From Candidatus Pacearchaeota archaeon (lineage in GTDB: Archaea; Nanobdellota; Nanobdellia; Pacearchaeales; GW2011-AR1), in the NCBI GenBank assembly GCA_041654895.1, contig JBAZCR010000001.1, positions 11,057 to 75,056 on the forward strand: 64,000 nt of DNA, in the 5' to 3' direction. Numbering within the stretch: the stretch's first letter is position 1; each line of letters starts with the position of its first letter. A program made the translations under genes and the position numbers. Positions 27,993 through 48,480 of this stretch are shown piece after piece. The notes below the pieces were generated by a model. It saw nothing but the letters and a program-made list of their open reading frames with translations. It did no database searches and had not been told where the DNA came from.

Positions 27993-28458
27993 AAACCTCT
28001 AAATTTAGTTTTGTTTTTTTGTCATTTAATATAATTGTATTTTCAATTGAGGAATAACCTTGTTTAAATTCTCCTAAATCTTTTGTATTTGTTTTTAATA
28101 TTTCGTTTACCCATGATCTTCCATCATCACCGAACATTATTGTTTCTTCGTCTAATTTTATACTTATAAAATATTTATTGTATAATTCGTCTTCAGTATT
28201 ATATTTGAAATCACAATATTTTAAAATATTTGAATTAAAATCTTTTTTTATTTTTTCAATATTAAATTCTTCAGCATCCCTTATACAATTTGTTATTTTT
28301 TTTGATAGGATTATTGCCTCACTATCTTTAACATTGATATTAGGCATATATATTCCATTTGAAATTCCCATAATTAAAAGTACCACTATTATTAATAAAA
28401 AAATTCTATACATCGTTACAATAGACTCGCCTATTGCCTCTGCTTTTTTATTTTTCAT
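27979..28458 (-). CDS. Type IV pilin-like protein
   Basis: MKNKKAEAIGESIVTMYRIFLLIIVVLLIMGI class III-like N-terminus. Confidence 0.5.
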   Translation of the reverse strand: MKNKKAEAIGESIVTMYRIFLLIIVVLLIMGISNGIYMPNINVKDSEAIILSKKITNCIRDAEEFNIEKIKKDFNSNILKYCDFKYNTEDELYNKYFISIKLDEETIMFGDDGRSWVNEILKTNTKDLGEFKQGYSSIENTIILNDKKTKLNLEVYVNE

Positions 28459-28814
28459 TTTATCTGGATTATATATTCAGTTTGATCTTCATCTTCAATT
28501 AATTGAATTAAGTGTTGTGTTATAATTGGATATCCTCTCAAAGATACAAGCCCGTCTATTTGAATAAAAATTTTATTATCTTTAATCTCTATTTTACTAA
28601 TATATCCATTAACATTATTTTTTTGAATAATAAAATTCATTCCTGGTATTGCAGAGTCTATTAAAAGTGCTGTTTGTTTTTCTAATACTTGTTGTTTTAC
28701 GCTTCTACTATCTATTTTGGAAGATAAATTTAAAATAAATAATGTGGTGATTAATAAAATTAAAATTAGGTGAACAATTACTTCTTGCATACTAGTCCCT
28801 CTTTTATTTTTCAT
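28455..28814 (-). CDS. Type IV pilin-like protein
   Basis: True start is probably the internal ATG giving MKNKRGTSMQEVIVHLILILLITTLFIL. The track's start at 28862 is a TTG. Confidence 0.5.
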   Translation of the reverse strand: MKNKRGTSMQEVIVHLILILLITTLFILNLSSKIDSRSVKQQVLEKQTALLIDSAIPGMNFIIQKNNVNGYISKIEIKDNKIFIQIDGLVSLRGYPIITQHLIQLIEDEDQTEYIIQIK

Positions 28815-28815
28815 T

Positions 28816-28929
28816 TTAATTGAATAGTTTAAATAGCGAATAAATTCCAAGTGAAGTTGCAACTATTATTGCTATATAAATAATCCATTTAATTATCTCG
28901 TCTGTTGATTGTGCTTTTTTATTTTTCAT
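28816..28929 (-). CDS. Small pilin-like protein (37 aa)
   Basis: MKNKKAQSTDEIIKWIIYIAIIVATSLGIYSLFKLFN. Not in the ORF track. Sits between two pilin genes with coupled overlaps. Confidence 0.35.
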   Translation of the reverse strand: MKNKKAQSTDEIIKWIIYIAIIVATSLGIYSLFKLFN

Positions 28930-29746
28930 TTCTTAATTTATAATTTTGTATATTATACCTTATTGATACCTGATCTTTGTATATAATGCACTCTTCTATT
29001 TGGTTTTGATAAAATTCCTTTTCTTTATTTTTATCCAATTTAAACTCTTCAAAATATTCTTCAATTAGAGATTCACAATTAGAAGGAGTATTCAAAAGAG
29101 ACTCTAATTTTATTGTTTTTGATCCTGATATGCATTCTTGATAAAACTCATTATAATCGTAAGTAGAATATAGTTTTGAACAGAAATCCTCTATTTTGGA
29201 TTCATCCTTTACAGAACTAATTATTTTTTCAAGAGTTACATCTCCATTATTTACTATTTTTAAATTATAATTATTATCTTCAAAGTTTATTTTGATTCTT
29301 GTTAGTGTATCTAGAGCTATAAAATTATTTTCTATATTTACTTTTTCTTTTATATTTATGCACTTCTCACAGATAACTATTTTATCTTGGATATTCTCGG
29401 TTGAACAAACACATAATTGGTTTTTTTTACTAAAGAAATTTGTAGTTAATGCATCGTTAAACTCTTTAATTTCAATCTTATTTTTATCCTGAAAATTAAC
29501 TAAAAAATATCTTTCTTTATTAGATAATTCTTGGTAGATAGTTATTTCTGATGTTGAATATTTTTTTGCTTCTTCAATCGAGTTTTCTATTTGTGTAAAT
29601 AAGCTTTGAAGAATTTGGTCTGATTTACTTTCTCTTAATAAGAAGGATAATGCTAAAGATAATAAGGTTACTACAACAATTACTCCGATTATTAGTCCAA
29701 TAGAAGTTTCTGATAATAATGAAGAACCTCTTTTAGTTTTATGCAT
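28919..29746 (-). CDS. Larger pilin-like protein with Cys-containing C-terminal domain
   Basis: MHKTKRGSSLLSETSIGLIIGVIVVVTLLSLALSF N-terminus. First gene of the minus-strand pilin operon. Confidence 0.5.
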   Translation of the reverse strand: MHKTKRGSSLLSETSIGLIIGVIVVVTLLSLALSFLLRESKSDQILQSLFTQIENSIEEAKKYSTSEITIYQELSNKERYFLVNFQDKNKIEIKEFNDALTTNFFSKKNQLCVCSTENIQDKIVICEKCINIKEKVNIENNFIALDTLTRIKINFEDNNYNLKIVNNGDVTLEKIISSVKDESKIEDFCSKLYSTYDYNEFYQECISGSKTIKLESLLNTPSNCESLIEEYFEEFKLDKNKEKEFYQNQIEECIIYKDQVSIRYNIQNYKLRNEK

Positions 29747-30868: not shown

Positions 30869-32719
30869 TTAACAAACTTTATTTAGATATTCAATGATAG
30901 TACTCATATCTTTTTTTATTTCTACTGGAACTGTAGTAAAATAAACTTTATTACCAGAATCTATTTCATTCCAATTTCCATCTTTAAATTCAAACATTTT
31001 TAAATCAGGGTAATCTATTTCTAATACATCTTTATCTTTATTTTTTGAAATCCCATATTTCTTATCTATACTTAGCATCATACGTCCATCTCCATAATCA
31101 AATAATTCTATTTCCTTCTCTTGCTTAGATAGATAGCTCTGAAAAAGTTGTTTTATACGTTCTGTTTCATCTTGATTTTGTGTTAGATTTGACACTAAAT
31201 ATTGATAGAATTCTTCTTTATTTTGTTCATTTAAAGGATTAAATGAATATGATAAATATTGTTTTTCGCCAATAAAATTAGTGGTAACTGTTCCGTGATA
31301 TACGCTATATTTATTGTCTGACATTTTTAGTATTTCATTTATTACATCATTTATTGTTTCTATATCTCTTTTGAATATCCAGAAACCTTTCTTTAAACTT
31401 TTTATTTCTTCTTCTGAGCTAGAAAATTTTTCTTTTAAATACCACTTTTCTCCATTTTTTATAATCAATGTTCCTGGTTTCGATTCACTATTTTTTTTCA
31501 TTTTAAAATTGTCTACAAAAATATAATAGATATCATTTTTAGAAAAAATCTTGTTTAAAATACTCTTTTCTTCTAGTTTTTCGCATCTTTTAACATCTTC
31601 TGATTTACTAATTATTTTTGGACACTTATTATTATAACAAACTATTTTTGTTGTGCTCCCTGATTTTACTTCTGTAAGTGCTATAAAGCATTCACAATCT
31701 TCTCCATCTAAAGCACATTTATACTTTTTATTACAAACTATTTCGTCTTCTTGAGTTTGTAAATTTTTATTTACTTTTTCTATATACTCCTTAAAGGTTG
31801 TAGTTCTTATCTCAAGAATACACTCTTCTAAATATTTATTATTTTTAATCCACTCTTTTTGGTTTAAATTAAGAGAGCTTTCATATTCTGAAATTAGTTT
31901 TATTTTATTCTCCCTAGTTACATGTCCGACAACACCTAAAGAATACCATAATCTTCCGAATTCATCTAAATATGCACTATTTTGCTTTTTATTATTAATA
32001 TACAAATACCATTTATGATAAGGATATTTTTCAAAAGGTTTTTTTATATCGTTTGATAATGAAGGATAATATTGCGTAAGGCCTCCAGACGATTCTATAT
32101 TAAAATAAGTATTTTGACAATAATTGGGATTTTTCACTTCAAAATCATCACAAAAATATCCTATTGGACAATCTTCATTTGAGTTGCATGTTTCTGGTAG
32201 TTCCTCTGTTGTTTCTGGATCTATTTCTTTTGAAAAATCTTCTAGAATCTTTTTTAGAATCTCAAAATTTTCATTTGTTTCTACTTCTTCTTTAATTTCT
32301 TCTGAATTTGTTTTTGTTATAGCTTCCCATTTGCCTTCAGGAGTATTAGAATTTTCTCCTTGTGATTGTGTATGATCTGTGTTTTCTAAAAATCTATATA
32401 TCCCTGTAGTATTAATTTTAAATTTTGAACTTGGACCTATCTTTTTGTCTAAGGTCAATTTACATTCACTTGGGCAAATTTCTAAATGACCTTGAAATTC
32501 TTTTTCATTTACACTTTTTTCAAAGCATAATCCTTCTTCAGTTGTTTTTCCTTTTTGATTAAAAAAAATTAATATTTTGTCCATTTGAGAACCCATTTTT
32601 TGAATCCCACTGACCAACCAACCGTTATATGCTCCTACAGCAATTAGAACTAGTAATAATAAGGCCATTATAATTACAACTAATTTACTTACCGTCATTC
32701 CACCTCCTTCTTCTGCCAT
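30869..32719 (-). CDS. Large Cys-rich surface protein with pilin-like N-terminus (candidate pilus-associated adhesin)
   Basis: MAEEGGGMTVSKLVVIIMALLLLVLIAVGAYNGW N-terminus, 616 aa, with many Cys pairs (CNKKYKCALDGEDCECF, CYNNKCPKI, CNSNEDCPIGYFCDD). Confidence 0.45.
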   Translation of the reverse strand: MAEEGGGMTVSKLVVIIMALLLLVLIAVGAYNGWLVSGIQKMGSQMDKILIFFNQKGKTTEEGLCFEKSVNEKEFQGHLEICPSECKLTLDKKIGPSSKFKINTTGIYRFLENTDHTQSQGENSNTPEGKWEAITKTNSEEIKEEVETNENFEILKKILEDFSKEIDPETTEELPETCNSNEDCPIGYFCDDFEVKNPNYCQNTYFNIESSGGLTQYYPSLSNDIKKPFEKYPYHKWYLYINNKKQNSAYLDEFGRLWYSLGVVGHVTRENKIKLISEYESSLNLNQKEWIKNNKYLEECILEIRTTTFKEYIEKVNKNLQTQEDEIVCNKKYKCALDGEDCECFIALTEVKSGSTTKIVCYNNKCPKIISKSEDVKRCEKLEEKSILNKIFSKNDIYYIFVDNFKMKKNSESKPGTLIIKNGEKWYLKEKFSSSEEEIKSLKKGFWIFKRDIETINDVINEILKMSDNKYSVYHGTVTTNFIGEKQYLSYSFNPLNEQNKEEFYQYLVSNLTQNQDETERIKQLFQSYLSKQEKEIELFDYGDGRMMLSIDKKYGISKNKDKDVLEIDYPDLKMFEFKDGNWNEIDSGNKVYFTTVPVEIKKDMSTIIEYLNKVC

Positions 32720-32920: not shown

Positions 32921-33247
32921 CTAATCGCATAATTTCGGACAAGATTTTATTTCAAATCCTTCAAATGATTGAATAGATAATTTTTCACATGTTTCTTTTA
33001 TTTGTTTTTCTTCATTTATTTTTAATTTTTGAATATCCTTACAATATGTTTTGACATCTTTTTGAATGCAAGCTAATTCACATTTATTTTGAATTACTTC
33101 TATATTTTGTTCATATGAGCCTAAAATATTAATCTTTTGTCCTATTGTTTTCCATTGTCCTGTTACACTAATTATGACTACAATAAGTACAAGAAGGATT
33201 AAGATTAATGTAACAACTAAATTTATTTGTGCTTTTTTTAATTGCAT
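32921..33247 (-). CDS. Pilin-like protein with Cys-containing globular part
   Basis: MQLKKAQINLVVTLILILLVLIVVIISV, then a 4-Cys domain. Confidence 0.45.
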   Translation of the reverse strand: MQLKKAQINLVVTLILILLVLIVVIISVTGQWKTIGQKINILGSYEQNIEVIQNKCELACIQKDVKTYCKDIQKLKINEEKQIKETCEKLSIQSFEGFEIKSCPKLCD

Positions 33248-33293
33248 AAAAGAATTGAGAATTTATATTTAATAAAGGTTTTGAAAATAAAAG

Positions 33294-33737
33294 TTAACAA
33301 AGGCCAGGGCATTCTTCAAAAATATTTGTTAATTCAAACCTATCGTCTGTTGCTAGAGAATTACAAGTTACTTTTATATAAACTGGTTCATAATCTTTCT
33401 TTTCATTATCTTCTAATTTATTATAGTCTTCAATTGTTTTTTTTATGTCTTCTTTTTTATGTTTGTATTCTTCAATAACTTCTGATTTTATTTTAGAACC
33501 ATCTTCTTTTATAATTTCTCTTTCTGCATTACAAAATCTATAAGCGTCTTGACTTTGACATGCCATTAAACAGGCCTGAGCAATCTCGTTAACATTTGTT
33601 TTTCCACCACCAAAGATATTTACTTTATTCCAAAAATTTCCCCATCCAGTAGAAAAGCCATAAATTAAAAATACTAAAATAGCAACAGCCAAAACTATTG
33701 CAATAATAGTTGTAATTGTCATTTCACCTTTTTTCAT
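33294..33737 (-). CDS. Pilin-like protein with Cys-containing globular part
   Basis: MKKGEMTITTIIAIVLAVAILVFLIYGF, then a 6-Cys domain. Confidence 0.45.
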   Translation of the reverse strand: MKKGEMTITTIIAIVLAVAILVFLIYGFSTGWGNFWNKVNIFGGGKTNVNEIAQACLMACQSQDAYRFCNAEREIIKEDGSKIKSEVIEEYKHKKEDIKKTIEDYNKLEDNEKKDYEPVYIKVTCNSLATDDRFELTNIFEECPGLC

Positions 33738-33935: not shown

Positions 33936-35825
33936 TTGTTATTTGTTTTTATTAATATGTTATTAAAAGAAGGTGATAGAAAAGGTCAAGTTACTCTTTT
34001 TATTATAATAAGTATCTTAATTGTTAGTCTTGTTATTCTTTTTTTTGTATTTAAAGATAATTTTTTTGATAAAAATATTGACCCTGAATTTAAACCTATA
34101 TATAATAGTTATATTGAATGTGTTAAAGGTACAGCGAAAGAGGGTATTTATTTAATGGGTCAACAAGGGGGTTATATTGATTTACCTGATTTTGAACCTG
34201 GAAGTAGATTTATGCCTTTTTCTTCTCAATTAGATTTTTTAGGAGAAAAAATTCCTTATTGGTTTTATATTTCTGGAAATAATTTAATGAAAAAACAAGT
34301 TCCTTCAAAAAGAGATATGGAAATTCAATTAGAAAAATTTATTTCTGATAGATTAGATTTTTGTGATTTAAGCATTTATGAATCTCAAGGATTTAATTAT
34401 ATTTTGAATGATTCAGGTGACGTTAGTGTTAAAATAAATGATTTAAGCGTCGATATTTATTTTAATAATCGATTAAATTTTTATTTTGAAGATAAAAGTG
34501 TTTTAATTAATACACATGAATTTAATATCCCTTCAAAATTAGGTAAATTTTATTCATCTTCTGTTGATATTTATAATCATGAAATGCAAACAACATTTTT
34601 AGAAAAATATGCATATGATGTTTTAATGAATTATGTCCCGGTTGTTGGTTTTGAATTACAATGTAATCCTTTAATTTTTAATAAGGAAGATATAAAGAAT
34701 AATATTACTAATGGTCTTGTTGCGAATATTAATTCTATTAGGATGAAAGGCAATTATTATCAATTAAATGATGTTAAAGAAGAGTATTTTGTTGTGGATA
34801 GTGGAAATTCTTTTGATGAATTAGTTAATGTTTTTTATAATTCAAATTGGCCATTGAAATTAGAAATTAAAGGAGATTTAATTAATGAACCTGTTGGTTT
34901 ACAAGGAGGTTTAGAAATGTTGGGTTTTTGTTATGTTCCTTACAAATTAAATTATGACCTTGTTTTTCCAGTATTAATCCAATTTATAGAAGATGATTTT
35001 ATTTTTCAATTTCCTATTAATGTGATTATTGAGAATACGCAAGTAAGGGAAAGTATTAATCAAACCTTTTTTGAAGTAGAATCTAATTATTATGATGTTT
35101 GTAATTATAAAAATTCAAATTTAGTAGTAAATACTTATGATTATAATTTAAACCCTTTAGAATCTTCTTTGACTTTTAAGTGCTTAGATAGTAATTGTTA
35201 TTTGGGAGAATCAAAATTAGAAGGTTCTTTTGCAACTTTTAATGGGATGGTGCCTCAATGTATTAATGGTTTACTTCTTATAAGTTCTGAAGGTTATTTG
35301 GATTTTCAGAAAAAGATTTCAACAAATGAGAACTTAATTTTAGATGTTTGGTTAAAGAAAAAATATACTTTTAATTTAGATATGACTAATTTGGAAAATG
35401 AAAAAGCATTAATTAGTTTTGAAGGAAAGGATTATTCTACTAGTATTGTTTATCCTGAAATGAAAAGTTTGGAATTAGTAGAAGATAATTATAATATTAG
35501 CATCTTTGTCTATTCTGAAAGTTCTTTAGTCTTGCCTGAAATAAATGAAGAATATTGTGTAAGTGTTCCTGTTGGTGGTATGGGTAGTGTATTTGGCTAT
35601 GAAGAAGAAAGATGCGAAAATATAAATATTCCTTCTATGACTATAAATTCTGCTGTTGTTGGGGGAGGTAGTTTAACAAATTATTACATTACTGAGGATA
35701 TTTTAATAAGTTCTAAAAATTTAAATATTGTACCAACTTTATTTGATTTACCTAAGGATTTAAATGACTTACAAAAAAATTATATTAAAGTGGAGGATTC
35801 AGTTGTTTATTTGAACTTTAATTAA
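33936..35825 (+). CDS. Large protein with pilin-like (class III) N-terminus
   Basis: MLFVFINMLLKEGDRKGQ-VTLFIIISILIVSLVILFFVF. 629 aa. Stop is adjacent to the start of the giant ORF. Confidence 0.45.
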   Translation: MLFVFINMLLKEGDRKGQVTLFIIISILIVSLVILFFVFKDNFFDKNIDPEFKPIYNSYIECVKGTAKEGIYLMGQQGGYIDLPDFEPGSRFMPFSSQLDFLGEKIPYWFYISGNNLMKKQVPSKRDMEIQLEKFISDRLDFCDLSIYESQGFNYILNDSGDVSVKINDLSVDIYFNNRLNFYFEDKSVLINTHEFNIPSKLGKFYSSSVDIYNHEMQTTFLEKYAYDVLMNYVPVVGFELQCNPLIFNKEDIKNNITNGLVANINSIRMKGNYYQLNDVKEEYFVVDSGNSFDELVNVFYNSNWPLKLEIKGDLINEPVGLQGGLEMLGFCYVPYKLNYDLVFPVLIQFIEDDFIFQFPINVIIENTQVRESINQTFFEVESNYYDVCNYKNSNLVVNTYDYNLNPLESSLTFKCLDSNCYLGESKLEGSFATFNGMVPQCINGLLLISSEGYLDFQKKISTNENLILDVWLKKKYTFNLDMTNLENEKALISFEGKDYSTSIVYPEMKSLELVEDNYNISIFVYSESSLVLPEINEEYCVSVPVGGMGSVFGYEEERCENINIPSMTINSAVVGGGSLTNYYITEDILISSKNLNIVPTLFDLPKDLNDLQKNYIKVEDSVVYLNFN

Positions 35826-35826
35826 A

Positions 35827-38800
35827 ATGATTGATAGTATAAGAAAAAGAGTTAAAGAAAAAAGGCTTATTCTTTTTTTTAGTTTAATTTTAATTTCAAT
35901 GTCTCTTGTTTTAGGTTTTGATAGTTCTTTTAGTTATGACGAAGTTTATAATAATATTCTTAATTCAGGAGATTGTAGTTCTGGGGATAATTTTGATTTT
36001 TTGGTTATGATTCCGCCAAATGGTTGCCAACCAAGTCTTGTTAGAAGTGATTTATTATCGAGCCAAAATACTCCTGTTTTCTGTCAATTAGAAGCAATTA
36101 AATTAAATCCTTTGATTGAATCTGCTAGTATTACTTCTATTTCTTTTCAAGGAGATTATCCTGAGGAAGTTGCAGGAATAAGCTTTCATCCTACTAGAGC
36201 TGCAATAAAAAATTATAATAGTTTAGCAGATAATTCTATTTCTAAAAATATTGGTTATGTTGTTATTTTATTGAAGAAGCAACCAAATGAATCAAAAATG
36301 GAAGATTGGGTCAGTGGTGTTTTAACAGCGAATATTAAATATGACTATCAAAAAACTTATGGTGTTGGTCAATCTGATTTTTATTTAAATTTAAATGATA
36401 ATTCTAATTGGGATAGTGTCTTTAATAAATATAATTTTTGGTCTGGTCGAGGATATTTAAGATTAAAATCAATTGGTTCTGATTCTGCAGAGATAGAGGT
36501 TTTAGAAAATAAAAATAAAGTTTATACTAATGTTATCTTAGAAGAAGGAAATACAAGTAACACTATTTATTTTCCTGGGGATTATTGTAAGGCTGGATTT
36601 AAACTAAAATTAAATGAAATAACTTCTGCAAGAGATGAAGTTTTATTAAACATTAACGGAGATTATGTTTGGGTTAGAGAAGGTTCAAGAATAGCAAATA
36701 ACAATTGTATTATTAAAGAAATCAACCTAAAAAATGATTTAGAAAAAGATGTTAAGATTAGCTGTCCTGGAAATATTTTTACATTGAGTATTAAAATTAA
36801 GGATATTGATACAGAAATTACAGAAGATTCATCTTCAGAGAAAGATTTGGGTGAACATCTGAAAGAAGCCCAGGTAAATTTAATGGATTTATTAAATAGT
36901 TATCCTTATGAAAAAGACGATGCTAATTCTTTTTTTGGAGAAATTGCCTTACGTAAACAAATAGATTTGCCTAAAATAGGAAAACTCAAATCAGAATTAA
37001 TAGATATGTTCTTAAAAAATTATCAAGATTCTGTATATTATGAATCTATACGAAGTTTAAAAAATAATAATTATGATTATTCTTTATCTGAAAACTCTTT
37101 TAAATTAAATAATAATAATTATTTTATTTCTTTTAGGGATTTTATTTCAGTTGATAATTCTGCTAAAAAAGCTACTTTTAGTATTGACGGTGTTTCAACA
37201 GGTTTGGTTAATGAAGGATGGCGTAAGGAATATACAGAGGGTATATTAACCCTAAAAATGATTGAACATAACTTTCTTATCTTTGAATTTCAAGGTTCAA
37301 AAGACAAAATTATAACAATTAAAGTTTTTGAAGGAGAAGAAAAAATAATAAATAATCTAAGAATTAATATTCAGAATATTAATACTATTAGGACAGCTCA
37401 TGTTAGCCTACTACCTGTAATTGAATCTGATTATTCAAAGGCCAATTTTACATTTAAAATAGGTATTGAAAAAAGATTAATTCAAATAAGTCCTGAGATC
37501 GCTCAAGATAGAATAGAATCTTTAAATAAAACAATTGAATCTTTAGATAAATTTATTGAAGGATTTGATAAAACTTTAAGTGTTTGGAAAGGAACTTGTA
37601 TTACAACAAGTGCAATATTTAATGCTAAAGCATTTATTAGTGGTTTTAGTGGAGAAGGTATTGCAAGAAAAGAAGTAATGACTTATTATAAGAACTTTTG
37701 TGATGGTAAAATATCTGAGGGTCTTTTTAGGACAAGAGAAGGATGTTATTTTGAGCATTCTGACGAAATAGAAAAAAATGTTCAATCTTATAAAGAAAGT
37801 TTAGGCAATGTTAATGAGATAATTAAAGAAGTTCAAAAAGGAAAAGGGGTTGTTGAGTCTGGTTCAATTGTAAATAACGCAGAATATACTAGTAAATTAA
37901 AAGAAAAAATAACTAACCCTAAAATTGATAAAAATGAATTGACTACAGTTACTCAGATTAGAAGTGCTTTGTTGTATCAAGATTTATTGAAAGGAGATCC
38001 AAGTTGTGAATCTATTTCATGTCGTCTTGCTAAAGAAGAGTATGGTGGTTCAGGCATTAATCAAAATTTTAATAATGATGAGAGCATTAGTTCAGGAGAT
38101 ATTTGTAGCAATCAATTTTTGAATCCTCAAGTAAGATATTATGATTCTGGTAAGAATAAAGGATTGCCTTCTGTTGTTCCTCTTGATTTAAAAAAAGGGT
38201 GGTATGCTTATATTTCAAATTCAGAGGGTAGTTTGATTGAAACAGAAATTAAGAGTTATGATACTAGTGGCCGAGTTAATTATTTTTATATTTGTAATGT
38301 TGGGGAAAATGGCCAAATGGAATATAGAGGAGGAGACGATTTCTGTCAAGGATTTAGTTCTTATCAATCAAGTTATGACTCAATTATGTTTTGTCCTAAT
38401 ATGGGTGATAAAGATGTTTCAAGATTATACAATAGTGCAAAAGAAGCCATTATTAGTGCTTCAGAACAATATGGAAAAAATAAAGTTTATATCCTAGGAA
38501 ATTATTTTGAAGTGGGTCAAACAATGACTGATAGTGGCATTTTTGAATGTACTGATTTTATGAGTGTTAAAGATTGTCAAACAATGTTTAATATTTGCGA
38601 TCCTGTTTTATGTCCTTCTAGTAGGTGTGATGCTGGTGGGAGATATCCTGTGAGTAATGTTCCTCAACAAGGAATTATTGGTAGTTTAATATTATGTTGG
38701 CCTAATAAAGATGAGGGTATTAAAATTCCTATTTGTTTAACAGGGATTAATGCAGGTTTACAGAATTTAAATTCTATTTTAAAACAAACAAGACAGTGTT

Positions 38801-40650
38801 TACAAACTAATATTGATACTGGAGAATATGTTGGTGTGTGTGATGCTATAACAAGTGTTTATTTTTGTAACATGTTTTGGGAACAAAGTTCTTTAATGAT
38901 TAATGCTCTTAGTTCTCCTTCAAATAGAGTAACTGGCGGAGTTCAGGGAGGAGGAGAATATTTATTTGCTCAGCAAAATTTCCAAAACATGGAATCAGCT
39001 TTATCTAATTATATTTCAAACTATGGTGATGAAATTTTAAAGGCTTATAAATTTGAGAATTTTGAGAGCATTGGAACAGAGTTTTGCAGAAATTTTATTG
39101 GTGTAGATTTACCGACTAAACTTAAGAATGGTTTAGGTATTTTGTCTGAACCTGAAAGTCCTGCACAATTTAATGCTTACTTTAGTGAATCTTTATATGA
39201 AGACATTAGTGTTCCTTCAAGATCTCAATATAAAGTAACTTATCAAATTTATGCTGGTAGAAATGAGGGTTTAAGCTATAAAGTTTATTTGAAAAATCCT
39301 CCTGCTAATTATGTTAATGTTAATCCTACTTACGAGGTTGCTAGCGGATACTTAGAGGCAGATGATGGAAAAATAGATACGTTAACATTTGTTGCAGTAT
39401 CTGGATATAGTACTTTATGTGTAAACTTAAATGGCGTTGAGAATTGTGGTTTTGGTTCTGTAACTAGTAATTTAATGGGAGAATATATAAAAGAAAAATA
39501 TGTAGAAACAGAGGTTCGTAAAAATAAAATAACTACAGAAAAGGATTGTATTTCAAGTAGTCCTTCTATTTTTAATATTAATGGTAAAAATATAGAATTA
39601 TTAGGAATAACTAGAATTTGTGCTAGTTCTGATCCAAATAGCAAAGAAGATATTAACTCTGAAAATCAATGGATTGAAGTTGGTTATTGTGGTAATGAAA
39701 ACATTAAATGTTGGTTGGATGTTGAGAGTATTCAAGAAGATTTTAATGCGATAAGTACAATATCTGGTAAAAGTATTTTAGATAATTTAATTTATGGTGA
39801 TACTTATGAATCAATACTTCAATCATATAAAGATGTTAGAGAAAAAATTTTAGAATTAAAAAGGGATATAAATATAGCAGAAGATTTATCTAAAGAAAAA
39901 GATTCTTTAATTGAGAAGTTAGATAAGATTATAGGTGTTTCAGGAGAAGATCTTGGTGAAGGCACGAATAGAGATAAAGCTGAAGCACTTTATCTAAAAG
40001 TTATACTTTATCAAAAGCTTTATCAAAATTCTAATAAACCAAATGATATTAGTAAAGTAATTTCAGATAAAGAAGAAACAAAGGAATCAGAGGGAGAAAC
40101 TCCTATTGAAGAATTAACCAAAGTTAGTGTTTGGACATTATCATCTGAAAATGAGATTTGTTTAGATGGTGAACCTCTAGGATATTATTTAGATCCTATT
40201 AACCTTAACGAGAATAAATATAGAATTTTAAATTCTAAAGATGATGATGGATGGCAAATAGGATTAATCACCAAAGACAATATTAGTATTTATTCAAATA
40301 TTTATTCTGGTTCTATAGTAAATTTAGAGAATTATATTTTTGATGGTAAGAAATTTATATTAAAAGAAGGTTGGGCATTATCGCCTAAAAATGAGATTTG
40401 TTTAGATGGTGAACCTCTAGGATATTATTTAGATCCTATTAACCTTAACGAGAATAAATATAGAATTTTAAATTCTAAAGATGATGATGGATGGCAAATA
40501 GGATTAATCATCAATGATAGAATTAGTATTTATTCTGATTCTATAGTAAATTTAGAGAATTATATTTTTGATGGTAAAAAATTTATATTAAAAGAGAGTA
40601 ATACTCAAGAAATAAGAAATTCAGAGATGTTCAGCCTGGAGGAAAGATAA
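35827..40650 (+). CDS. Giant (1607 aa) secreted/surface protein with duplicated C-terminal module
   Basis: N-terminal signal/anchor RLILFFSLILISMSLVLGF. Cys-rich segments. Two near-identical 80-aa C-terminal modules (ICLDGEPLGYYLDPINLNENKYRILNSKDDDGWQIGLI...). Confidence 0.5.
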   Translation: MIDSIRKRVKEKRLILFFSLILISMSLVLGFDSSFSYDEVYNNILNSGDCSSGDNFDFLVMIPPNGCQPSLVRSDLLSSQNTPVFCQLEAIKLNPLIESASITSISFQGDYPEEVAGISFHPTRAAIKNYNSLADNSISKNIGYVVILLKKQPNESKMEDWVSGVLTANIKYDYQKTYGVGQSDFYLNLNDNSNWDSVFNKYNFWSGRGYLRLKSIGSDSAEIEVLENKNKVYTNVILEEGNTSNTIYFPGDYCKAGFKLKLNEITSARDEVLLNINGDYVWVREGSRIANNNCIIKEINLKNDLEKDVKISCPGNIFTLSIKIKDIDTEITEDSSSEKDLGEHLKEAQVNLMDLLNSYPYEKDDANSFFGEIALRKQIDLPKIGKLKSELIDMFLKNYQDSVYYESIRSLKNNNYDYSLSENSFKLNNNNYFISFRDFISVDNSAKKATFSIDGVSTGLVNEGWRKEYTEGILTLKMIEHNFLIFEFQGSKDKIITIKVFEGEEKIINNLRINIQNINTIRTAHVSLLPVIESDYSKANFTFKIGIEKRLIQISPEIAQDRIESLNKTIESLDKFIEGFDKTLSVWKGTCITTSAIFNAKAFISGFSGEGIARKEVMTYYKNFCDGKISEGLFRTREGCYFEHSDEIEKNVQSYKESLGNVNEIIKEVQKGKGVVESGSIVNNAEYTSKLKEKITNPKIDKNELTTVTQIRSALLYQDLLKGDPSCESISCRLAKEEYGGSGINQNFNNDESISSGDICSNQFLNPQVRYYDSGKNKGLPSVVPLDLKKGWYAYISNSEGSLIETEIKSYDTSGRVNYFYICNVGENGQMEYRGGDDFCQGFSSYQSSYDSIMFCPNMGDKDVSRLYNSAKEAIISASEQYGKNKVYILGNYFEVGQTMTDSGIFECTDFMSVKDCQTMFNICDPVLCPSSRCDAGGRYPVSNVPQQGIIGSLILCWPNKDEGIKIPICLTGINAGLQNLNSILKQTRQCLQTNIDTGEYVGVCDAITSVYFCNMFWEQSSLMINALSSPSNRVTGGVQGGGEYLFAQQNFQNMESALSNYISNYGDEILKAYKFENFESIGTEFCRNFIGVDLPTKLKNGLGILSEPESPAQFNAYFSESLYEDISVPSRSQYKVTYQIYAGRNEGLSYKVYLKNPPANYVNVNPTYEVASGYLEADDGKIDTLTFVAVSGYSTLCVNLNGVENCGFGSVTSNLMGEYIKEKYVETEVRKNKITTEKDCISSSPSIFNINGKNIELLGITRICASSDPNSKEDINSENQWIEVGYCGNENIKCWLDVESIQEDFNAISTISGKSILDNLIYGDTYESILQSYKDVREKILELKRDINIAEDLSKEKDSLIEKLDKIIGVSGEDLGEGTNRDKAEALYLKVILYQKLYQNSNKPNDISKVISDKEETKESEGETPIEELTKVSVWTLSSENEICLDGEPLGYYLDPINLNENKYRILNSKDDDGWQIGLITKDNISIYSNIYSGSIVNLENYIFDGKKFILKEGWALSPKNEICLDGEPLGYYLDPINLNENKYRILNSKDDDGWQIGLIINDRISIYSDSIVNLENYIFDGKKFILKESNTQEIRNSEMFSLEER
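40133..40612 (+). repeat. Tandem duplication of a 240-bp coding module (2 copies)
   Basis: 40150-40274 is base-for-base identical to 40390-40514. The flanks are about 85-90% identical. Period 240 bp, which is 80 codons and keeps the frame. Confidence 0.85.
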
Positions 40651-40767: not shown

Positions 40768-41721
40768 TTAGTTTTTATCTTTTATTTTAGCCAATTTTTT
40801 CTTTTTTCTTGCTTCATTTTCTTTTATTTTTATTTTCTCTTCAAGTTCTAACTTTGTTAATAATTCTTTATATCGATTTCTTATTGTTACTTCTGTTATT
40901 CCCGCAATATCTGCTACTTCTCTTTGTGTTCTTTTCTCATCGTTTAATAGTGCGGCTACATAAAGCGCAGCTGCTGCAATTCCTGCAGGGCCTCTACCTG
41001 AAGATAATTCTGCAATTTCTTCTCTACTTAATATTTTTAGTGCCTCATTTTGAGATTTTGGAGATAAGTGTAATGTAGAGCCAAATCTTGAGATGTAATC
41101 TTTTGGAGAAGATGGGATTAACTTTAAGCCAATTTTTCTTATAATAAATCTATATGTTCTGCCAATTTCCTTTCGTTCTACTTCGCTCGCATGTGAAATT
41201 TCATCTAAAGTCCTAGGAATATTATAAGACCTACAAGCAGCATAAACACAAGATGCGATAACTGATTCCATTGATCTTCCCCTAACTAGTCCTCGCTGTA
41301 ATACGTAATTATAAATTCTTGCAGCCTCGTCTTTTACAACATTAGGCAAATCTAAGTATGATGCTACTCTTCTTAATTCAGACATTGCAAGCCTTAGATT
41401 TCTTTCGATAGAAGTTGAAACTCTTTCTTGCCACTTTTTTAATCTTAAATATTTTCTTGTTTGTTGGGATGAATCTAACCTATAGATATCAGATATTTCT
41501 CCTATATTTGTTGTTAATCCTCTATCAAATTTTTGCATAGAAATTGGAGCTCCTCCTCGAGATTTTTTTTCGGTTTTATCAAAAGCTCTCATTTCTTGGC
41601 CTGTATCAACCATTCCTTCTTCAATTAAAAGGCCACAATCACCACAAATTAGTTCACCTTTATTATCATCATAAATTAGATGTGTACTATTACATTCAGG
41701 ACATCTTTTAGGAGAGTTCAT
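40768..41721 (-). CDS. tfb: Transcription initiation factor TFB (TFIIB homolog)
   Basis: N-terminal Zn ribbon CPECNSTHLIYDDNKGELICGDCG, B-reader region, and two cyclin repeats (...RGRSMESVIASCVYAACR..., ...GRGPAGIAAAALYVAAL...). Lys-rich C-terminal tail. Confidence 0.85.
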   Translation of the reverse strand: MNSPKRCPECNSTHLIYDDNKGELICGDCGLLIEEGMVDTGQEMRAFDKTEKKSRGGAPISMQKFDRGLTTNIGEISDIYRLDSSQQTRKYLRLKKWQERVSTSIERNLRLAMSELRRVASYLDLPNVVKDEAARIYNYVLQRGLVRGRSMESVIASCVYAACRSYNIPRTLDEISHASEVERKEIGRTYRFIIRKIGLKLIPSSPKDYISRFGSTLHLSPKSQNEALKILSREEIAELSSGRGPAGIAAAALYVAALLNDEKRTQREVADIAGITEVTIRNRYKELLTKLELEEKIKIKENEARKKKKLAKIKDKN

Positions 41722-41841: not shown

Positions 41842-44034
41842 ATGAATTATAGTGTTGACGATAAGGCCGAAGACATACTTAAAAAATATAGTGCCAAAAT
41901 TGAAAAACAAATGAATCAAACGAACAGAGATTCCTTTAATTCATCAAAATTTTCTAAAAGTTATGAACAATTTAGAAAAGCAATGACTCCTGAATTTAGT
42001 CGATATGAGGGGTGGTGTAAAACTGTTGGTAATTTTATAAAAGTTAAAGCTAGTGAAAAAGATAGGATAAATATAGAAAAGAATATTAATATTTCTCATT
42101 TAAATGTTACCTCTTCGGAAGTTATGGGGTTAGCTGTTTTTATTATGCTTTCTTCTCTATTTGGTGGTTTTTTAATTTTATTAAGTGTTTATTTTATAAC
42201 TAATAAATTCAATCTTCTTTTTTTATTTTTAATTTTTATTCTAAGTTTATTTTTACTTACTTTTTATTCAAAAGCTCCTGAGAGACTTGCGATGAAGTGG
42301 AGATTAAAAGCTGGTAGTCAAATGGTTCCTGCGGTTTTGTATGTTGTCATTTACATGAAGCATACTAGTAACTTAGAAAAAGCAGTTGCTTTTGCTGCAG
42401 AAAATTTAGAAGATCCTCTATCAACTGATTTTAGGAAAGTTTTTTGGGATGTTGAAGTAGGTAAATTCTCTACGATAAAAGACAGTTTAGACAATTATTT
42501 AGAGAATTGGAGAGATTATTCTTTAGAGTTTATTGAGGCATTTCATTTAATTGAATCTAGTTTATATGAGTCTAACGAAGGAAGAAGAGTAGAAATTTTA
42601 GAGAGAAGTCTTCAGGTTATATTAGATGGTGTTTATGATAAAATGTTGAAATATACTCATGAAGTTAAGAGCCCTTTAACAAATGTTTATATGTTGGGAA
42701 TTGTTTTACCAACTCTTGCTTTAGCAATTTTACCTCTTGCTTCTACAATGGTCGGGGATCTTTTTCAAACATATCATTTAGTTTTGATGTTTAACATAAT
42801 TATTCCTTTGCTTGTTATTTATTTGACTTATAATGTAATGATGCAAAGGCCAGGGGGTCATGGTAATAGTGATTTATTAAAAAAGAATCCATTATATCCT
42901 AATTATGCTGATAAAAAGCATATAATTAAGGGTTTTATTTATTCAATCCCTTTCTTTTTAATTGGGTTATTTCCTTTAATTTGGATGTACTTTCCAATAC
43001 ATAAATTTTTAGGAATGCCAATTGATTTGACTTTTGGAGATTTAGGTTTTAATTTTATGAAGAATACTTTTTTATTGGGGATTATGGAGTCTGGTGTTAA
43101 ACCTGGTTCTTATATTGGTCCTTTTGGCCCACTGTCGGTAATTATGGGAATATTTCTTCCATTAGGTATTGCTAATGTGTTTATTTATTCTTCTAAAAAA
43201 AGAACTGCTGAATTGGTTAAAGAAAAGAAAAAATATAATGAGGTTGAGAGTGAATTTACTTCTTCTTTATTTCAATTAGGAAATAGAATTGGAGATGGTT
43301 CTCCTGCTGAAATTGCTTTTGGGAAGGTTTCTGAGTCTAGTAGGGGAACGGCTACTGAAGGTTTTTTTAGGATTGTTAATGAAAATATTAATAGGTTTGG
43401 AATGAATTTAGATAGGGCTTTATTTGATTCTAAAAGAGGTGCTGTTATTTTTTATCCATCTCATTTAGTAATCACATCTATGAGGATATTAGTTGAATCT
43501 GTTAAAAAAGGTTTAAAAGTCGCTGCACGAAGTTTAATGAGTATTTCTGAGTATGTGAAAAATATTAGAAAGGTTGATGCAAGATTAAATGATTTATTGG
43601 CAGATATTATTAGTGATATGAAGAGTAACATGACTTTTTTAGCTCCTTTATTAAGTGGAATAATTGTAGGATTAAGTGGAATGATTACATTGATTTTAGG
43701 AAATCTGAAAAATTTGATGGGTTCTTTAGGTTCGGGAAATGAATTAACAAGTAGTTTTGGAAACCTTTCTGATATAATGAGTATGTTTCAATTAGAGACT
43801 ATGATTCCTACTTATTGGATTCAGGTCGTTGTAGGAATTTATTTAATCCAGGTAGTTTTTATATTGACCTCAACACTAGTTACTATAAAAGCAGGTAAAG
43901 ATGATTTAATGCAAACTGTTGAAATAGGAACTAATCTTAAAAAAACAATTCTTCTTTATATTCTTGTTTCAATTATTTCTACTGTTGCTTTAACATTAGT
44001 TGGTGGAATTGCATTAATTGGCTTAGGCGTTTAG
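41842..44034 (+). CDS. TadC/FlaJ/GspF-like type IV pilus membrane platform protein
   Basis: Two T2SSF-like cytoplasmic domains (...NLEKAVAFAAENLEDPLSTDFRKVFWDVEVGKFSTIKDSL... and ...EFTSSLFQLGNRIGDGSPAEIAFGKVSESSRGTATEGFFRIVNEN...) alternating with TM bundles. 730 aa. Confidence 0.55.
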   Translation: MNYSVDDKAEDILKKYSAKIEKQMNQTNRDSFNSSKFSKSYEQFRKAMTPEFSRYEGWCKTVGNFIKVKASEKDRINIEKNINISHLNVTSSEVMGLAVFIMLSSLFGGFLILLSVYFITNKFNLLFLFLIFILSLFLLTFYSKAPERLAMKWRLKAGSQMVPAVLYVVIYMKHTSNLEKAVAFAAENLEDPLSTDFRKVFWDVEVGKFSTIKDSLDNYLENWRDYSLEFIEAFHLIESSLYESNEGRRVEILERSLQVILDGVYDKMLKYTHEVKSPLTNVYMLGIVLPTLALAILPLASTMVGDLFQTYHLVLMFNIIIPLLVIYLTYNVMMQRPGGHGNSDLLKKNPLYPNYADKKHIIKGFIYSIPFFLIGLFPLIWMYFPIHKFLGMPIDLTFGDLGFNFMKNTFLLGIMESGVKPGSYIGPFGPLSVIMGIFLPLGIANVFIYSSKKRTAELVKEKKKYNEVESEFTSSLFQLGNRIGDGSPAEIAFGKVSESSRGTATEGFFRIVNENINRFGMNLDRALFDSKRGAVIFYPSHLVITSMRILVESVKKGLKVAARSLMSISEYVKNIRKVDARLNDLLADIISDMKSNMTFLAPLLSGIIVGLSGMITLILGNLKNLMGSLGSGNELTSSFGNLSDIMSMFQLETMIPTYWIQVVVGIYLIQVVFILTSTLVTIKAGKDDLMQTVEIGTNLKKTILLYILVSIISTVALTLVGGIALIGLGV

Positions 44035-46215: not shown

Positions 46216-48480
46216 ATGTTTAAAGAAAATAGTCCATTATATTCCTTTGATATTGTTCGAGAAAGTGGAGAGAATGTAGCTTATGTTAATTATCTTGGAG
46301 CTAATTATGTTCCAAATTTAGCAGATTATTTTGATGTGATGGCTAGGACTGTTGATCTTTTAATGGAAGATTCTAATATAAGTCGGATTGTTTATGTTCA
46401 ACAAAGAAATTATAGTCATAATTTTGAACAAGTGAATATGTTAATTGAGGTAGCACAGTTATATAATCATCTTACAAAGCAGGAAAAAGTTGTTTCTATT
46501 GCTGTTTTAGAAAAATTAGGTTATTTTTATGAAGAGGCTTATTCTTTTTTGAATTATATTATTAATGAGGTTTTAAAAGGAGATCCTGTTAGAGCTTATA
46601 GAGAATTAAAAGGCGCCTTATTTGAACAAAGAGCACTATCTGAAAAAGGCTATGATAATATTAATTATTTGAGATTAATTGAAAAAATAATCAATTCTTT
46701 TGATAGACTTTTATTGATTCAAAAATCCAAAGAGTTATTTAACAATTTTAAAATTGGAGACAGAGGGGTTTATTCTGATTTTTTTAGATCAGATATTATG
46801 CCTAATTTTACTTTCACTAGGATGATTGCAAGTTTACCTAAAAATGCTGAAATAATTAAAGAGTATGAAATTGCTAAAAATTATGATAAGAGTATAGTAA
46901 CCATTTTTAAGGAACCAAATAAAACTAAATTTTATTATCATTTAGTCCCACCAGAATATAACTTGAGTGAAGATTATCATATGCTTCTTAATTTAGCAAG
47001 AAATGTTTTAATAGAACATAAGCCAACACAAGAGGAATTTAATGATAGTCAAAGGACAAGAAGTGTTTTTTTGAATGTTAGTAAAGATTTATTGAGGGAT
47101 TTAGCGAATAATAAGGGCATTAATTTGTCTTATGATGATTTAAATTTATTATCTAATATCCTTGTTAGACATACTATTGGCTTTGGTGTTTTAGAGGTTC
47201 TTTTAGAGGATGAATCATTACAAGATTTGATGATTAACGCACCTGTTAGTTTGACTCCTATTTTCGTAAGACATAATGATTATGGAGAATGTGCTACAAA
47301 TTTAATTCCTTCAAAAGAAGATGCTGATTCTTGGGCTACTAAATTTAGAATGAGTAGTGGGAGGGCATTAGACGAAGCAAATCCTATTTTAGATACTAAT
47401 TTAGAATTACCTAACTCTAGTGCAAGAGTCGCAATAATTCAACAACCCTTAAGTAATGGGGGGCTTGCATATGCTTTAAGAAGACATAGAAATAAACCTT
47501 GGACATTGCCTTTATTTATGAAAGTAAATATGATTGATGGGCTTGGTGCAGGACTATTAAGCTTTATTATTGATGGAGCTAGAACATTATTAGTTGCAGG
47601 AACAAGGTCTAGTGGTAAAACTTCTTTGCTTGGTAGTTTGCTATTAGAAATTATGCCTAATTTAAGAATTATAACTATTGAGGATACATTAGAATTACCT
47701 GTTGCTGAAATGAGAAGACTTGATTATGATATATTGAGTATGAAAGTTAGAAGTTCATTAGGAGGAGAAAGTAATGAAGTTGACGCTAGTGAAGGTATTA
47801 GAGCTAGTCTACGTCTTGGTGATTCTTCTTTAATAGTCGGTGAAATTAGGAGTGAAGAAGCAAAATCATTATATGAAGCAATGAGAGTTGGTGCTCTAGC
47901 AAATGTTGTTGCAGGTACAATTCATGGTGGAAGTCCTTATTCTGTTTTTGATAGGGTTGTTAATGATTTACAAGTTCCCATTACAAGTTTTAAGGCAACA
48001 GACCTGATTATTGTTTGTAATCCTGTTAAATCTGTTGATGGTTTACGTTCTTATCGAAGAGTTTTGTCTATTAGTGAAGTTAGGAAACACTGGGAAAAGG
48101 ACCCTTTGAGCGAGGGGGGATTTGTAGATTTGATGAAGTATGATGTTTATGAAGACAAATTAAAACCTACCGATGATTTGATAAATGGTGATTCAGAAAT
48201 CTTAAAAGAGATTGCTGCAAATGTTAAAGGTTGGGCTGGAAATTGGGATGCTGTTTGGGATAATATTCTTCTTAGACAAAAGATAAAAGAAGAACTAGTT
48301 AATGTTGCAACAAAACTAAATAATTTTGATTTATTAGAAGCAGAATTTATAGTTAAATCAAATAATGCTTTTCACCAAATAAGCAATCAAGTCAGCAATG
48401 AGTTTGAATTACCTAAAAGTGAAGAAGTTTTTCCAAGATGGAAGAAATGGTTAGAAAAAGAAATTAAAAATTACCTTTAA
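46216..48480 (+). CDS. Type IV pilus / archaellum-type assembly ATPase (FlaI/TadA/VirB11 family) with a long N-terminal extension
   Basis: Walker A LVAGTRSSGKTSLLGSLL, ITIEDTLEL, Asp-box/Walker B, LIVGEIRSEEA, and His box. 754 aa against about 550 for FlaI. Confidence 0.75.
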   Translation: MFKENSPLYSFDIVRESGENVAYVNYLGANYVPNLADYFDVMARTVDLLMEDSNISRIVYVQQRNYSHNFEQVNMLIEVAQLYNHLTKQEKVVSIAVLEKLGYFYEEAYSFLNYIINEVLKGDPVRAYRELKGALFEQRALSEKGYDNINYLRLIEKIINSFDRLLLIQKSKELFNNFKIGDRGVYSDFFRSDIMPNFTFTRMIASLPKNAEIIKEYEIAKNYDKSIVTIFKEPNKTKFYYHLVPPEYNLSEDYHMLLNLARNVLIEHKPTQEEFNDSQRTRSVFLNVSKDLLRDLANNKGINLSYDDLNLLSNILVRHTIGFGVLEVLLEDESLQDLMINAPVSLTPIFVRHNDYGECATNLIPSKEDADSWATKFRMSSGRALDEANPILDTNLELPNSSARVAIIQQPLSNGGLAYALRRHRNKPWTLPLFMKVNMIDGLGAGLLSFIIDGARTLLVAGTRSSGKTSLLGSLLLEIMPNLRIITIEDTLELPVAEMRRLDYDILSMKVRSSLGGESNEVDASEGIRASLRLGDSSLIVGEIRSEEAKSLYEAMRVGALANVVAGTIHGGSPYSVFDRVVNDLQVPITSFKATDLIIVCNPVKSVDGLRSYRRVLSISEVRKHWEKDPLSEGGFVDLMKYDVYEDKLKPTDDLINGDSEILKEIAANVKGWAGNWDAVWDNILLRQKIKEELVNVATKLNNFDLLEAEFIVKSNNAFHQISNQVSNEFELPKSEEVFPRWKKWLEKEIKNYL

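Follow-up and report, generated by a model that had tools for sequence, protein, structure and literature searches.

The stretch of DNA analysed here (the window) comprises 64,000 nucleotides of contig JBAZCR010000001.1 from a Candidatus Pacearchaeota archaeon of the DPANN group (assembly GCA_041654895.1, positions 11,057 to 75,056) and has a GC content of 26%, ranging from 23 to 30% along the segment. Two adjoining genes on its plus strand, both present in the list of open reading frames (ORFs), encode a prepilin-type surface protein of 622 amino acids (33957..35825; the partner) and a secreted scaffold protein of 1607 amino acids (35827..40650; the giant). The partner gene is defined by its ORF, its homologues and an AlphaFold2 model, the giant gene by its ORF and 49 homologues. 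The first-pass annotation gave the first protein 629 residues; the corresponding ORF (33936..35825) exists and opens at a TTG codon, but the starts of the homologues match ATG 33957, which is likely the true start and gives a protein of 622 residues beginning with MLLKEGDRKGQ. The stop codon of the partner gene (TAA, 35823-35825) is followed by a single base and then by the ATG of the giant gene at 35827. The two-gene unit described earlier is therefore confirmed as co-directional and tightly coupled, with a gap of 1 nucleotide and an adjacency that is kept in about 70 loci.

Judged from its sequence, the N-terminus of the partner has the pattern of an archaeal class III (prepilin) signal, as the first-pass annotation had proposed. 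It consists of a charged leader with G, A or S at position -1, followed directly by a hydrophobic helix of about 20 residues, and residues 11-35 form the only hydrophobic segment of the protein. A comparison of 66 homologues predicts that a prepilin peptidase cuts the leader MLLKEGDRKG (33957..33986) after Gly10, which leaves the mature hydrophobic helix QVTLFIIISILIVSLVILFFVF (33987..34061) at the N-terminus; in the structural model a helix spans residues 8-35. Of these homologues, 49 have G, 15 have A and 2 have S at position -1, K or R is the usual residue at positions -2 and -3, and Gln occupies position +1 in all 66, followed by a nearly invariant V-T-I/L-F-I-I. The annotated leaders vary from 3 to about 90 residues and converge on (K/R)(K/R)(G/A/S)-Q-V-T-I/L-F-I-I with the cut before Gln, so that the mature end is fixed. 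A FlaFind-like rule is passed by 66 of 82 orthologous partner ORFs, and an A24 prepilin peptidase, as expected for a protein of the pilin class, is encoded in the same genome. EppA-type pilins of Methanococcus have a leader ending in Gly, Gln at +1 and Glu at +5 (PMC3875500); the partner shares the Gln at +1 but carries Phe at +5. Most simply, the partner would be a prepilin-processed anchor.

In the AlphaFold2 model (predicted local distance difference test, pLDDT, 82.6) the helix is followed by an alpha/beta domain (residues 46-360; 34092..35036), which contains motifs such as MPFSSQLDFLG..YW.Y.SGNN, and by a C-terminal beta-sandwich region that is nearly all beta-strand (residues 387-622; 35115..35822). 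A Foldseek search of the PDB gave weak Ig (immunoglobulin)-, CnaB- and transthyretin-like matches with low TM-scores (B. anthracis TIE, PitA, BcpA, SlaB). The alpha/beta domain had no PDB match by sequence, profile or Foldseek, and for the partner as a whole the sequence and profile searches of the PDB were empty. Searches of Pfam, NCBIfam and PHROGs gave nothing significant, including no pilin model in Pfam or NCBIfam. More than 520 homologues were found, nearly all of about 610 amino acids and 42-49% identical, and 10 Cys residues are invariant. The partner profile matched 470 stretches in species-representative genomes; the sources among the 80 stretches listed are Pacearchaeota, Woesearchaeota, Nanoarchaeota or plain 'archaeon'. 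One homologue, P0126, is labelled 'Methanococcoides sp. SA1' (HNV12_00145, on a 569-kb contig). Because every other named source of the partner belongs to DPANN, the genome behind this entry is probably DPANN as well, either mislabelled or co-assembled.

The giant begins with a predicted Sec-type signal peptide (residues 1-30, ending in SLVLG before FDSS; 35827..35916), which has a positive n-region and a 17-residue h-region. The N-termini are textbook Sec signals throughout the family, with AXA cleavage sites at the equivalent place in the homologues, which settles the "signal or anchor" of the first-pass annotation in favour of a signal. Residues 11-35 are the only hydrophobic segment; the giant has no C-terminal hydrophobic segment that could serve as an anchor, and the proposed search for a sortase-like motif found neither a sortase nor an archaeosortase signal. 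Mean pairwise identities over 57 orthologues divide the remainder into a conserved N-terminal domain (residues 40-330; 35944..36816; identity 0.45), a weakly conserved middle with variable inserts in relatives (331-740; 36817..38046; 0.26), a conserved Cys-rich core (741-1300; 38047..39726; 0.34-0.58 over four sub-regions), a helical stalk (1301-1405; 39727..40041; 0.22; helices in the model) and a polymorphic tail (1406-1607; 40042..40647; 0.14 family-wide), all on the plus strand. The core is made up of a beta domain, a Cys-rich helical part (901-1110; 0.55), an Ig-like sandwich (1111-1215) and a Cys knot, and the stalk ends in a demarcation motif of the general form GTNxD(K/R)AEALxLK, in the window GTNRDKAEALYLK (residues 1379-1391; 39961-39999), in which at least 95% of the relatives keep A1385. 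The 49 homologues measure 1084-2652 amino acids, most of them 1740-2652, and align to residues 30 to 1400, approximately, of the query but not past them; the complete orthologues at the loci measure 1568-2652 amino acids. The earlier description of the giant as Cys-rich is valid in a relative sense, as it contains 34 Cys (2.1%). Of these, 29 are shared by at least 95% of 57 relatives, and 21 of the 29 lie in the core. Together with the 10 invariant Cys of the partner, this content fits disulfide-bonded extracellular proteins.

The AlphaFold2 model of the giant covers residues 735-1607 with a pLDDT of 68.8. It is confident for the beta domain, the Ig-like sandwich, the helical stalk and the first tail repeat, reaching about 90 for residues 757-899 and 1114-1214, and is lower for the Cys-rich helical part. 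Foldseek matched this model in the PDB only to fn3-, CARDB- and ApaG-type sandwiches with low TM-scores and gave nothing meaningful among viral structures. Of the folds that the first-pass annotation had suggested, the Ig-like sandwiches were found, whereas neither Pfam nor Foldseek revealed a beta-helix or a lectin fold. Searches of Pfam, NCBIfam and PHROGs with the giant gave nothing significant, and its sequence and profile matches in the PDB were at chance level (E at least 0.017). A cryptic SLT domain in the scaffold was considered and rejected: an SLT hidden Markov model built from the family did not match even with --max, hhalign gave a probability of 0.2%, and Pfam found no SLT at E ≤ 1. 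N-glycosylation sequons are depleted in the giant (5 observed, 19.6 ± 3.8 in shuffled sequences), which is not strong evidence of anything particular to it because other proteins of the window, several of them cytoplasmic, are also poor in sequons.

The pair was examined in 85 loci of Pacearchaeota and Woesearchaeota, about 70 of which held enough downstream DNA to see the giant. In every one of these about 70 loci a giant homologue followed the partner directly on the same strand, with N-terminal domain, middle and core in order and a gap of mostly -3 to +45 nucleotides. Five loci were found from the side of the giant; all five have the partner upstream, of which one (L002) keeps only the C-terminal end next to the start of its contig. 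The comparative check that had been proposed thus found the pair to be widespread in these clades. Sequence distances of partner and giant correlate with r of 0.77-0.86, and with a partial r of about 0.6 given TFB, the gene that often follows the pair. For the N-terminal domain of the giant, r with the partner is 0.87 among 57 genomes and 0.83 among 36 genomes, where the partial r given TFB is 0.60. Both proteins evolve much faster than TFB (mean identity 0.46 vs 0.82). From these correlations, the N-terminal domain may be the docking site for the partner.

The conservation of the giant ends abruptly at the tail. Tails could be aligned over at least half of their length in 1 of 18 genome pairs at 70-80% partner identity and in 2 of 120 pairs at 60-70%. 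The close pairs L007/L016 (partners 89% identical), L007/L018 (86%) and L027/L073 (84%) carry non-homologous tails of unequal lengths on scaffolds that, except in two short variable stretches, are for the most part 80-95% identical. In these close pairs the identity drops to zero 15-30 residues past the conserved motif AGTNxDRAEALALKAxxYRMV. On this sequence pattern, we regard the tail as a swappable cassette beyond a scaffold of residues 40 to 1400, approximately. The variable stretches were seen in the giants of L007, L016 and L018, where two internal segments (alignment columns of about 360-480 and 840-1020 of the L007 giant, itself about 2000 amino acids long) fall to 0-35% identity in two blocks of 60 columns inside otherwise 80-95% identical sequence; this suggests further exchangeable or indel-prone inserts.

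A Pfam scan of 59 tails from the loci gives an indication of what the cassettes do. SLT was found in 5 of the 59 tails, including those of L033, L058, L059 and L062, and Amidase_3, Amidase_2, Phage_lysozyme2, M15_4, M23 (together with OmpA; L002), DUF2272, LysM and a GDSL lipase in one tail each; the tail of P0007 carries a SleB-type Hydrolase_2. The tail of L082 (9005-11668) combines two hydrolases, Amidase_2 and Peptidase_M15_4, that of L068 (17073-19667) contains a phage tail lysozyme domain, and that of L065 (17388-18827) contains DUF2272. In total, about 10 of the 59 loci have a wall-hydrolase or wall-binding domain, and the other tails match nothing. Murein hydrolase cassettes occur in roughly one fifth of lineages, and for these they imply bacterial targets. 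The role in host interaction that the first-pass annotation had attributed to the giant has gained in strength by this tail content and by the replacement of tails among near relatives.

The tail in the window consists of two tandem modules of about 80 amino acids (40135-40374 and 40375-40614, plus strand), whose DNA repeats are 95-97% identical. The module is present in 7 of 50 family members. A word-indexed search of 5.8 billion proteins was empty, and a full HMMER search gave whole-module matches only in fragments of the giant family. The start of the module, ICLDGEPLGYYLDPINLN (40135-40200), resembles the repeated IFYDxxDTGYYLDPxxTSxL motif of phage-tail-fibre-like proteins (P0172, P0174-P0178, P0182, P0186) whose last domain is a Peptidase_S74 intramolecular chaperone. 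This is a weak lead: the match is too short to prove homology, and the likeness may be due to convergence.

Taken together, we propose that the pair is a pilin-anchored display platform for a swappable host-contact cassette, a reading to which we assign about even probability, and thus a strong candidate for a device that contacts and selects host cells. The partner would be made as a prepilin of 622 residues, from which the A24 peptidase would trim the leader of 10 residues, and the helix starting with Gln-Val-Thr-Ile-Phe-Ile-Ile would then hold it in the membrane, in a type IV filament or in a short stub. The giant would be exported by Sec and lose its signal peptide. Since it has no anchor of its own, it would have to be retained by something, and the coupled, co-varying partner is therefore the obvious candidate; binding probably involves the conserved N-terminal domain. 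From there, a disulfide-rich scaffold of about 1400 residues would lead through the helical stalk and the motif GTNxD(K/R)AEALxLK to the exchangeable cassette, which would face outward and set what the cell attaches to or attacks. The duplicated beta module of the cassette in the window would most likely be a binding module.

Several points weigh against this proposal. The signals, the conservation, the coupling of the genes, the polymorphism of the tails and the hydrolases in relatives are observed, but cleavage of the leader, binding between partner and giant, display at the surface and a ligand of the tail are inferred. Tip adhesins and minor pilins usually vary more in length and sequence than the partner does, and its uniformity would suit a constitutive component of the envelope just as well as a display platform. 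"Host contact" is an extrapolation from the hydrolase-bearing minority of tails, because about 80% of the tails are without a known domain, and in Pfam and protein searches the tail of the window itself has no recognisable function. The scaffold has no assigned fold, and its helical part is modelled at low confidence. Finally, among the 85 loci, a linkage of the pair to pilus genes is confined to the subclade of the window.

In the window, the surroundings are as the first-pass annotation had described them, between pilins and TFB. An A24 prepilin peptidase (25937-26767, minus strand; Pfam Peptidase_A24 9.7e-9, Arc_PepC, NCBIfam FlaK weak), the expected processor of the partner, and small pilin-like ORFs with prepilin-like N-termini (26920-29746 and 32921-33737) lie upstream. 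TFB (40768-41721) begins 117 nucleotides after the giant, and a FlaI/TadA-type ATPase of type IV filaments (46216-48480, plus strand; Pfam T2SSE 1.5e-15; NCBIfam FlaI 7e-41, below its cut-off) lies further downstream. Pilus genes flank the pair only here and in the near relatives L003, L006, L026 and L032, and L034 has the A24 peptidase as well. The family-wide neighbours are others: of the 85 loci, about 50 have TFB behind the giant, almost without exception on the opposite strand, and about 35 of these continue with S8e after TFB. Pilin genes as family-wide neighbours were rejected: prepilin-like ORFs were found upstream at 7 of 57 loci, with a density of 0.040 per kb compared with 0.037. 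Because pilin-like ORFs are not enriched in the neighbourhood, it is the signal of the partner itself that links the pair to type IV filaments.

These observations bear on the pilus tip adhesin that the first-pass annotation had put forward, in a strict form of which the partner would be a minor pilin capping a long type IV pilus, with the giant at the tip like PilY1/PilC. The prepilin signal on a bulky protein recalls the modular pilins of S. sanguinis (PMC8179133), and the giant, like PilY1, carries a signal of the Sec type instead of a pilin signal. Both the window and L003 have major-pilin-like genes immediately upstream, in L003 on the same strand, and large adhesin-like proteins are often encoded at archaeal type IV filament loci, according to a preprint (bioRxiv 10.64898/2026.04.22.720090). 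Nevertheless, the family as a whole is linked to TFB and S8e and not to pilins, filament ATPase or peptidase, neither Pfam nor Foldseek (giant residues 735-1607) detected a PilY1-type propeller or another adhesin fold, and the partner lacks the Glu at +5. Class III signals also serve surface assemblies that are not filaments, as in the bindosome of Sulfolobus. We consider a tip adhesin in this strict form unlikely.

The neighbourhood next to TFB and S8e, a housekeeping context, could also be taken to indicate a two-component S-layer, in which the giant would form the outer lattice ("canopy"), the partner the membrane-anchored stalk, and the tails would decorate the outer face. The wide distribution of the pair, with 470 matching stretches in species-representative genomes, would agree with this, as would the composition of the operon from one large and one small protein, the latter with a single membrane helix and beta-sandwich domains; moreover, the window showed no further candidate for an S-layer protein. 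The Foldseek match of the partner to SlaB (8qox_B) reached E 2.2e-4, but its TM-scores of merely 0.12-0.17 indicate that it reflects generic Ig domains. The anchor of the partner is an N-terminal prepilin-type signal and not the C-terminal transmembrane segment with coiled coil of SlaB. High Cys content and few N-glycosylation sequons are unusual for S-layer proteins, and the giant has 34 Cys and depleted sequons; enzymatic, rapidly swapped tails are no known trait of S-layers either. An S-layer is, in our estimation, quite unlikely.

The cleavable Sec signal and the missing anchor would also be expected if the giant were freely released as an exo-enzyme or carrier of a bacteriolysin, with an unrelated partner that is merely co-transcribed, and archaea are documented to secrete peptidoglycan hydrolases with which they kill bacteria (PMC12352652). 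However, a diffusible enzyme would hardly need a conserved scaffold of about 1400 residues, most tails are without an enzyme domain, and the invariant adjacency with gaps of -3 to +45 nucleotides and the correlated distances speak against an unrelated partner. We regard this explanation as improbable. Similarly doubtful is a scaffold that acts as a contact-dependent cell-penetration device, whose tail would breach the envelope of the target, in the case of a murein hydrolase tail the bacterial wall, before the Cys-rich core inserts into the host membrane. In this scenario, which we hold to be improbable too, the most conserved, partly hydrophobic helical region of the core (residues 901-1110) (e.g. 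QQGIIGSLILCWPN...IPICLTGINAGL) would form or nucleate an intercellular conduit. If true, the pair would be the molecular basis of the connection between DPANN archaea and their hosts in Pacearchaeota and Woesearchaeota, the conduit would let metabolically minimal archaea draw resources, and the tail would set the host range, cross-domain (bacterial) hosts included.

An artefact of assembly or annotation, which would be suggested by the 240-nucleotide tandem repeat in the tail with its unequal copy number in two assemblies and by the splitting of both genes in a low-coverage assembly, is rejected as practically inconceivable, given that both genes are kept at full length across dozens of independent genomes. 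The second assembly is L086 (ENA ERZ2647912 NODE_734, 2.6x coverage), an independent assembly of the same population that is 99.7% identical to the window. Its differences are indels in homopolymer runs and one nonsense change, TGC to TGA at the invariant Cys1087 of the giant (window position 39087), as well as three copies of the tail repeat instead of two, a change that stays in frame; the differing sites are 34039-34061, 35873-35875, 38190-38192, 39087 and 40131-40614. Its gene calls are broken accordingly, the partner into 64 and 556 amino acids and the giant into 1084 and 586, and a neighbouring 730-residue membrane protein is also split. The misassembly that the first-pass annotation had named as a risk hence does not affect the ORFs; the copy number of the repeat (2 or 3) alone stays uncertain, because the two assemblies disagree.

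Further genes near the pair deserve mention. Directly upstream of the partner, 43 of about 82 loci carry on the same strand an ORF of 40-49 amino acids (MKKYLLLIEDEELWKKFKESIQKDINSEILELIEKRIKKENKK; e.g. L001 8041-8172, L004 8013-8162), which is mostly 65-100% identical between genomes, compared with an average of 47% for the partner. It looks like a strand and two helices (ribbon-helix-helix-like), Pfam gave only Arc at E 0.16, and it may be a dedicated regulator. This ORF is absent from the window, and tRNA-Leu and pilin genes occupy its place in the subclade of the window. Within the pilin cluster, a Cys-rich (2.6%) protein of 616 amino acids with the hydrophobic N-terminus MAEEGGGMTVSKLVVIIMALLLLVLIAVGAY is encoded at 30869-32719 on the minus strand; it has no match in Pfam or NCBIfam, is also present in L006 and L086, and is perhaps another large pilin-like protein or an accessory protein of the surface. 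The 730-residue membrane protein, which is polytopic (41842-44034, plus strand), lies between TFB and the ATPase and has the same place in L003 and L026. It matched neither T2SSF nor another family even at E 10 and is a candidate for a divergent pilus platform protein. Apart from PolD DP1 and DP2, the window also carries Cdc6/Orc1 besides TFB and S8e. Cdc6/Orc1 (16409-17623) adjoins the small (17675-19270) and large (21247-24759) PolD subunits, and a replication origin is likely just upstream of it, at about 15-16.4 kb. Two adjacent plus-strand ORFs, 59718-61235 (505 amino acids) and 61458-63290 (610 amino acids), had no Pfam match.

Few uncultured archaea are as abundant as Pacearchaeota and Woesearchaeota, whose hosts are perhaps bacteria rather than archaea. 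If the pair is a display platform as we propose, these clades would share a widespread module of two genes, in which an invariant anchor of the prepilin type carries a conserved giant scaffold with a rapidly exchanged cassette that has a sharp boundary and often encodes hydrolases of the bacterial wall. The cassette would be a testable candidate determinant of host attachment and host range, and its type, which can be read from metagenomes, could predict whether a lineage targets bacteria.

The wall enzymes found in a minority of tails agree with earlier suggestions that large murein-lytic proteins of Pacearchaeota and Woesearchaeota target bacterial hosts (PMC8204110; Vigneron et al. 2022, PMC9723730). 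The large lytic transglycosylase proteins described as fam00969 resemble the giants, by description, in their occurrence in the same clades, their extracellular location and a size class of up to about 3000 amino acids; the giants found here are likewise large extracellular proteins whose named sources are Pacearchaeota, Woesearchaeota, Nanoarchaeota or plain 'archaeon'. Some members of fam00969 carry SLT/GH23, as do 5 of the 59 relatives of the giant. In contrast to that description, the giant of the window has no SLT, detectable or cryptic, and in the giant family the hydrolase is one of many interchangeable tails. The portions of PMC8204110 and PMC9723730 that we could consult do not mention a pilin-like partner, an architecture of scaffold and cassette or a demarcation motif. 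None of the papers that we could consult describes the invariant prepilin partner, the boundary between scaffold and cassette, the breadth of hydrolase classes or members that, like the giant of the window, lack any hydrolase. The giant family looks to have been noticed before as "large lytic transglycosylase proteins", with its partner and the cassette logic undescribed, and the published family would be reframed in such a way that the hydrolase is one interchangeable warhead on a common platform.

Several better known systems share part of this organization. The bindosome of Sulfolobus includes an extracellular protein of about 550 amino acids with a prepilin-type signal, which need not form long filaments, and as in the partner the class III signal is found on a large globular surface protein. 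Unlike in the bindosome, no sugar-binding fold was detected, no BasEF-type genes lie beside the pair, and the partnership with a giant is new. SlaA and SlaB of Sulfolobales are also encoded by an operon of a large and a small protein, the small one being membrane-anchored with beta-sandwich domains, and the Foldseek match is weak. The pair described here has a prepilin-type anchor at the opposite end of the small protein, the gene order is reversed, and the proteins are Cys-rich with polymorphic enzymatic tails. PilY1/PilC tip complexes and the modular pilins PilB and PilC of S. sanguinis (PMC8179133) also combine a bulky protein with prepilin signal and a role in attachment, and PilY1/PilC likewise pairs a large Sec-exported non-pilin protein with a prepilin-signal protein. 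The pair in the window differs from these systems in that it has no relation to them in sequence or fold, no propeller and no family-wide linkage to pili, and its giant is larger and bears a polymorphic enzymatic or binding tail.

With polymorphic toxins (CdiB/CdiA, Rhs; Zhang et al. 2012, PMC3482391) the giant shares a conserved N-terminal scaffold with unrelated C-termini, a short conserved motif at the breakpoint and the adjoining partner gene for about 600 amino acids. Unlike in polymorphic toxins, TFB lies downstream where an immunity gene or orphan cassettes would be found, and the tails with known domains are wall hydrolases and not nucleases or deaminases; an immunity gene would be unnecessary against murein hydrolases in an archaeon. 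In contrast to CdiB, which is a beta-barrel transporter, the partner is of the prepilin type, and the cell that encodes it is an archaeon without an outer membrane. By analogy, the sequence of scaffold, junction motif and unrelated C-terminus follows the logic of polymorphic effectors and of exchangeable receptor-binding tips. Seen against these systems, the pair appears to unite two known kinds of system, an adhesin complex associated with type IV pilins and a polymorphic C-terminal effector.

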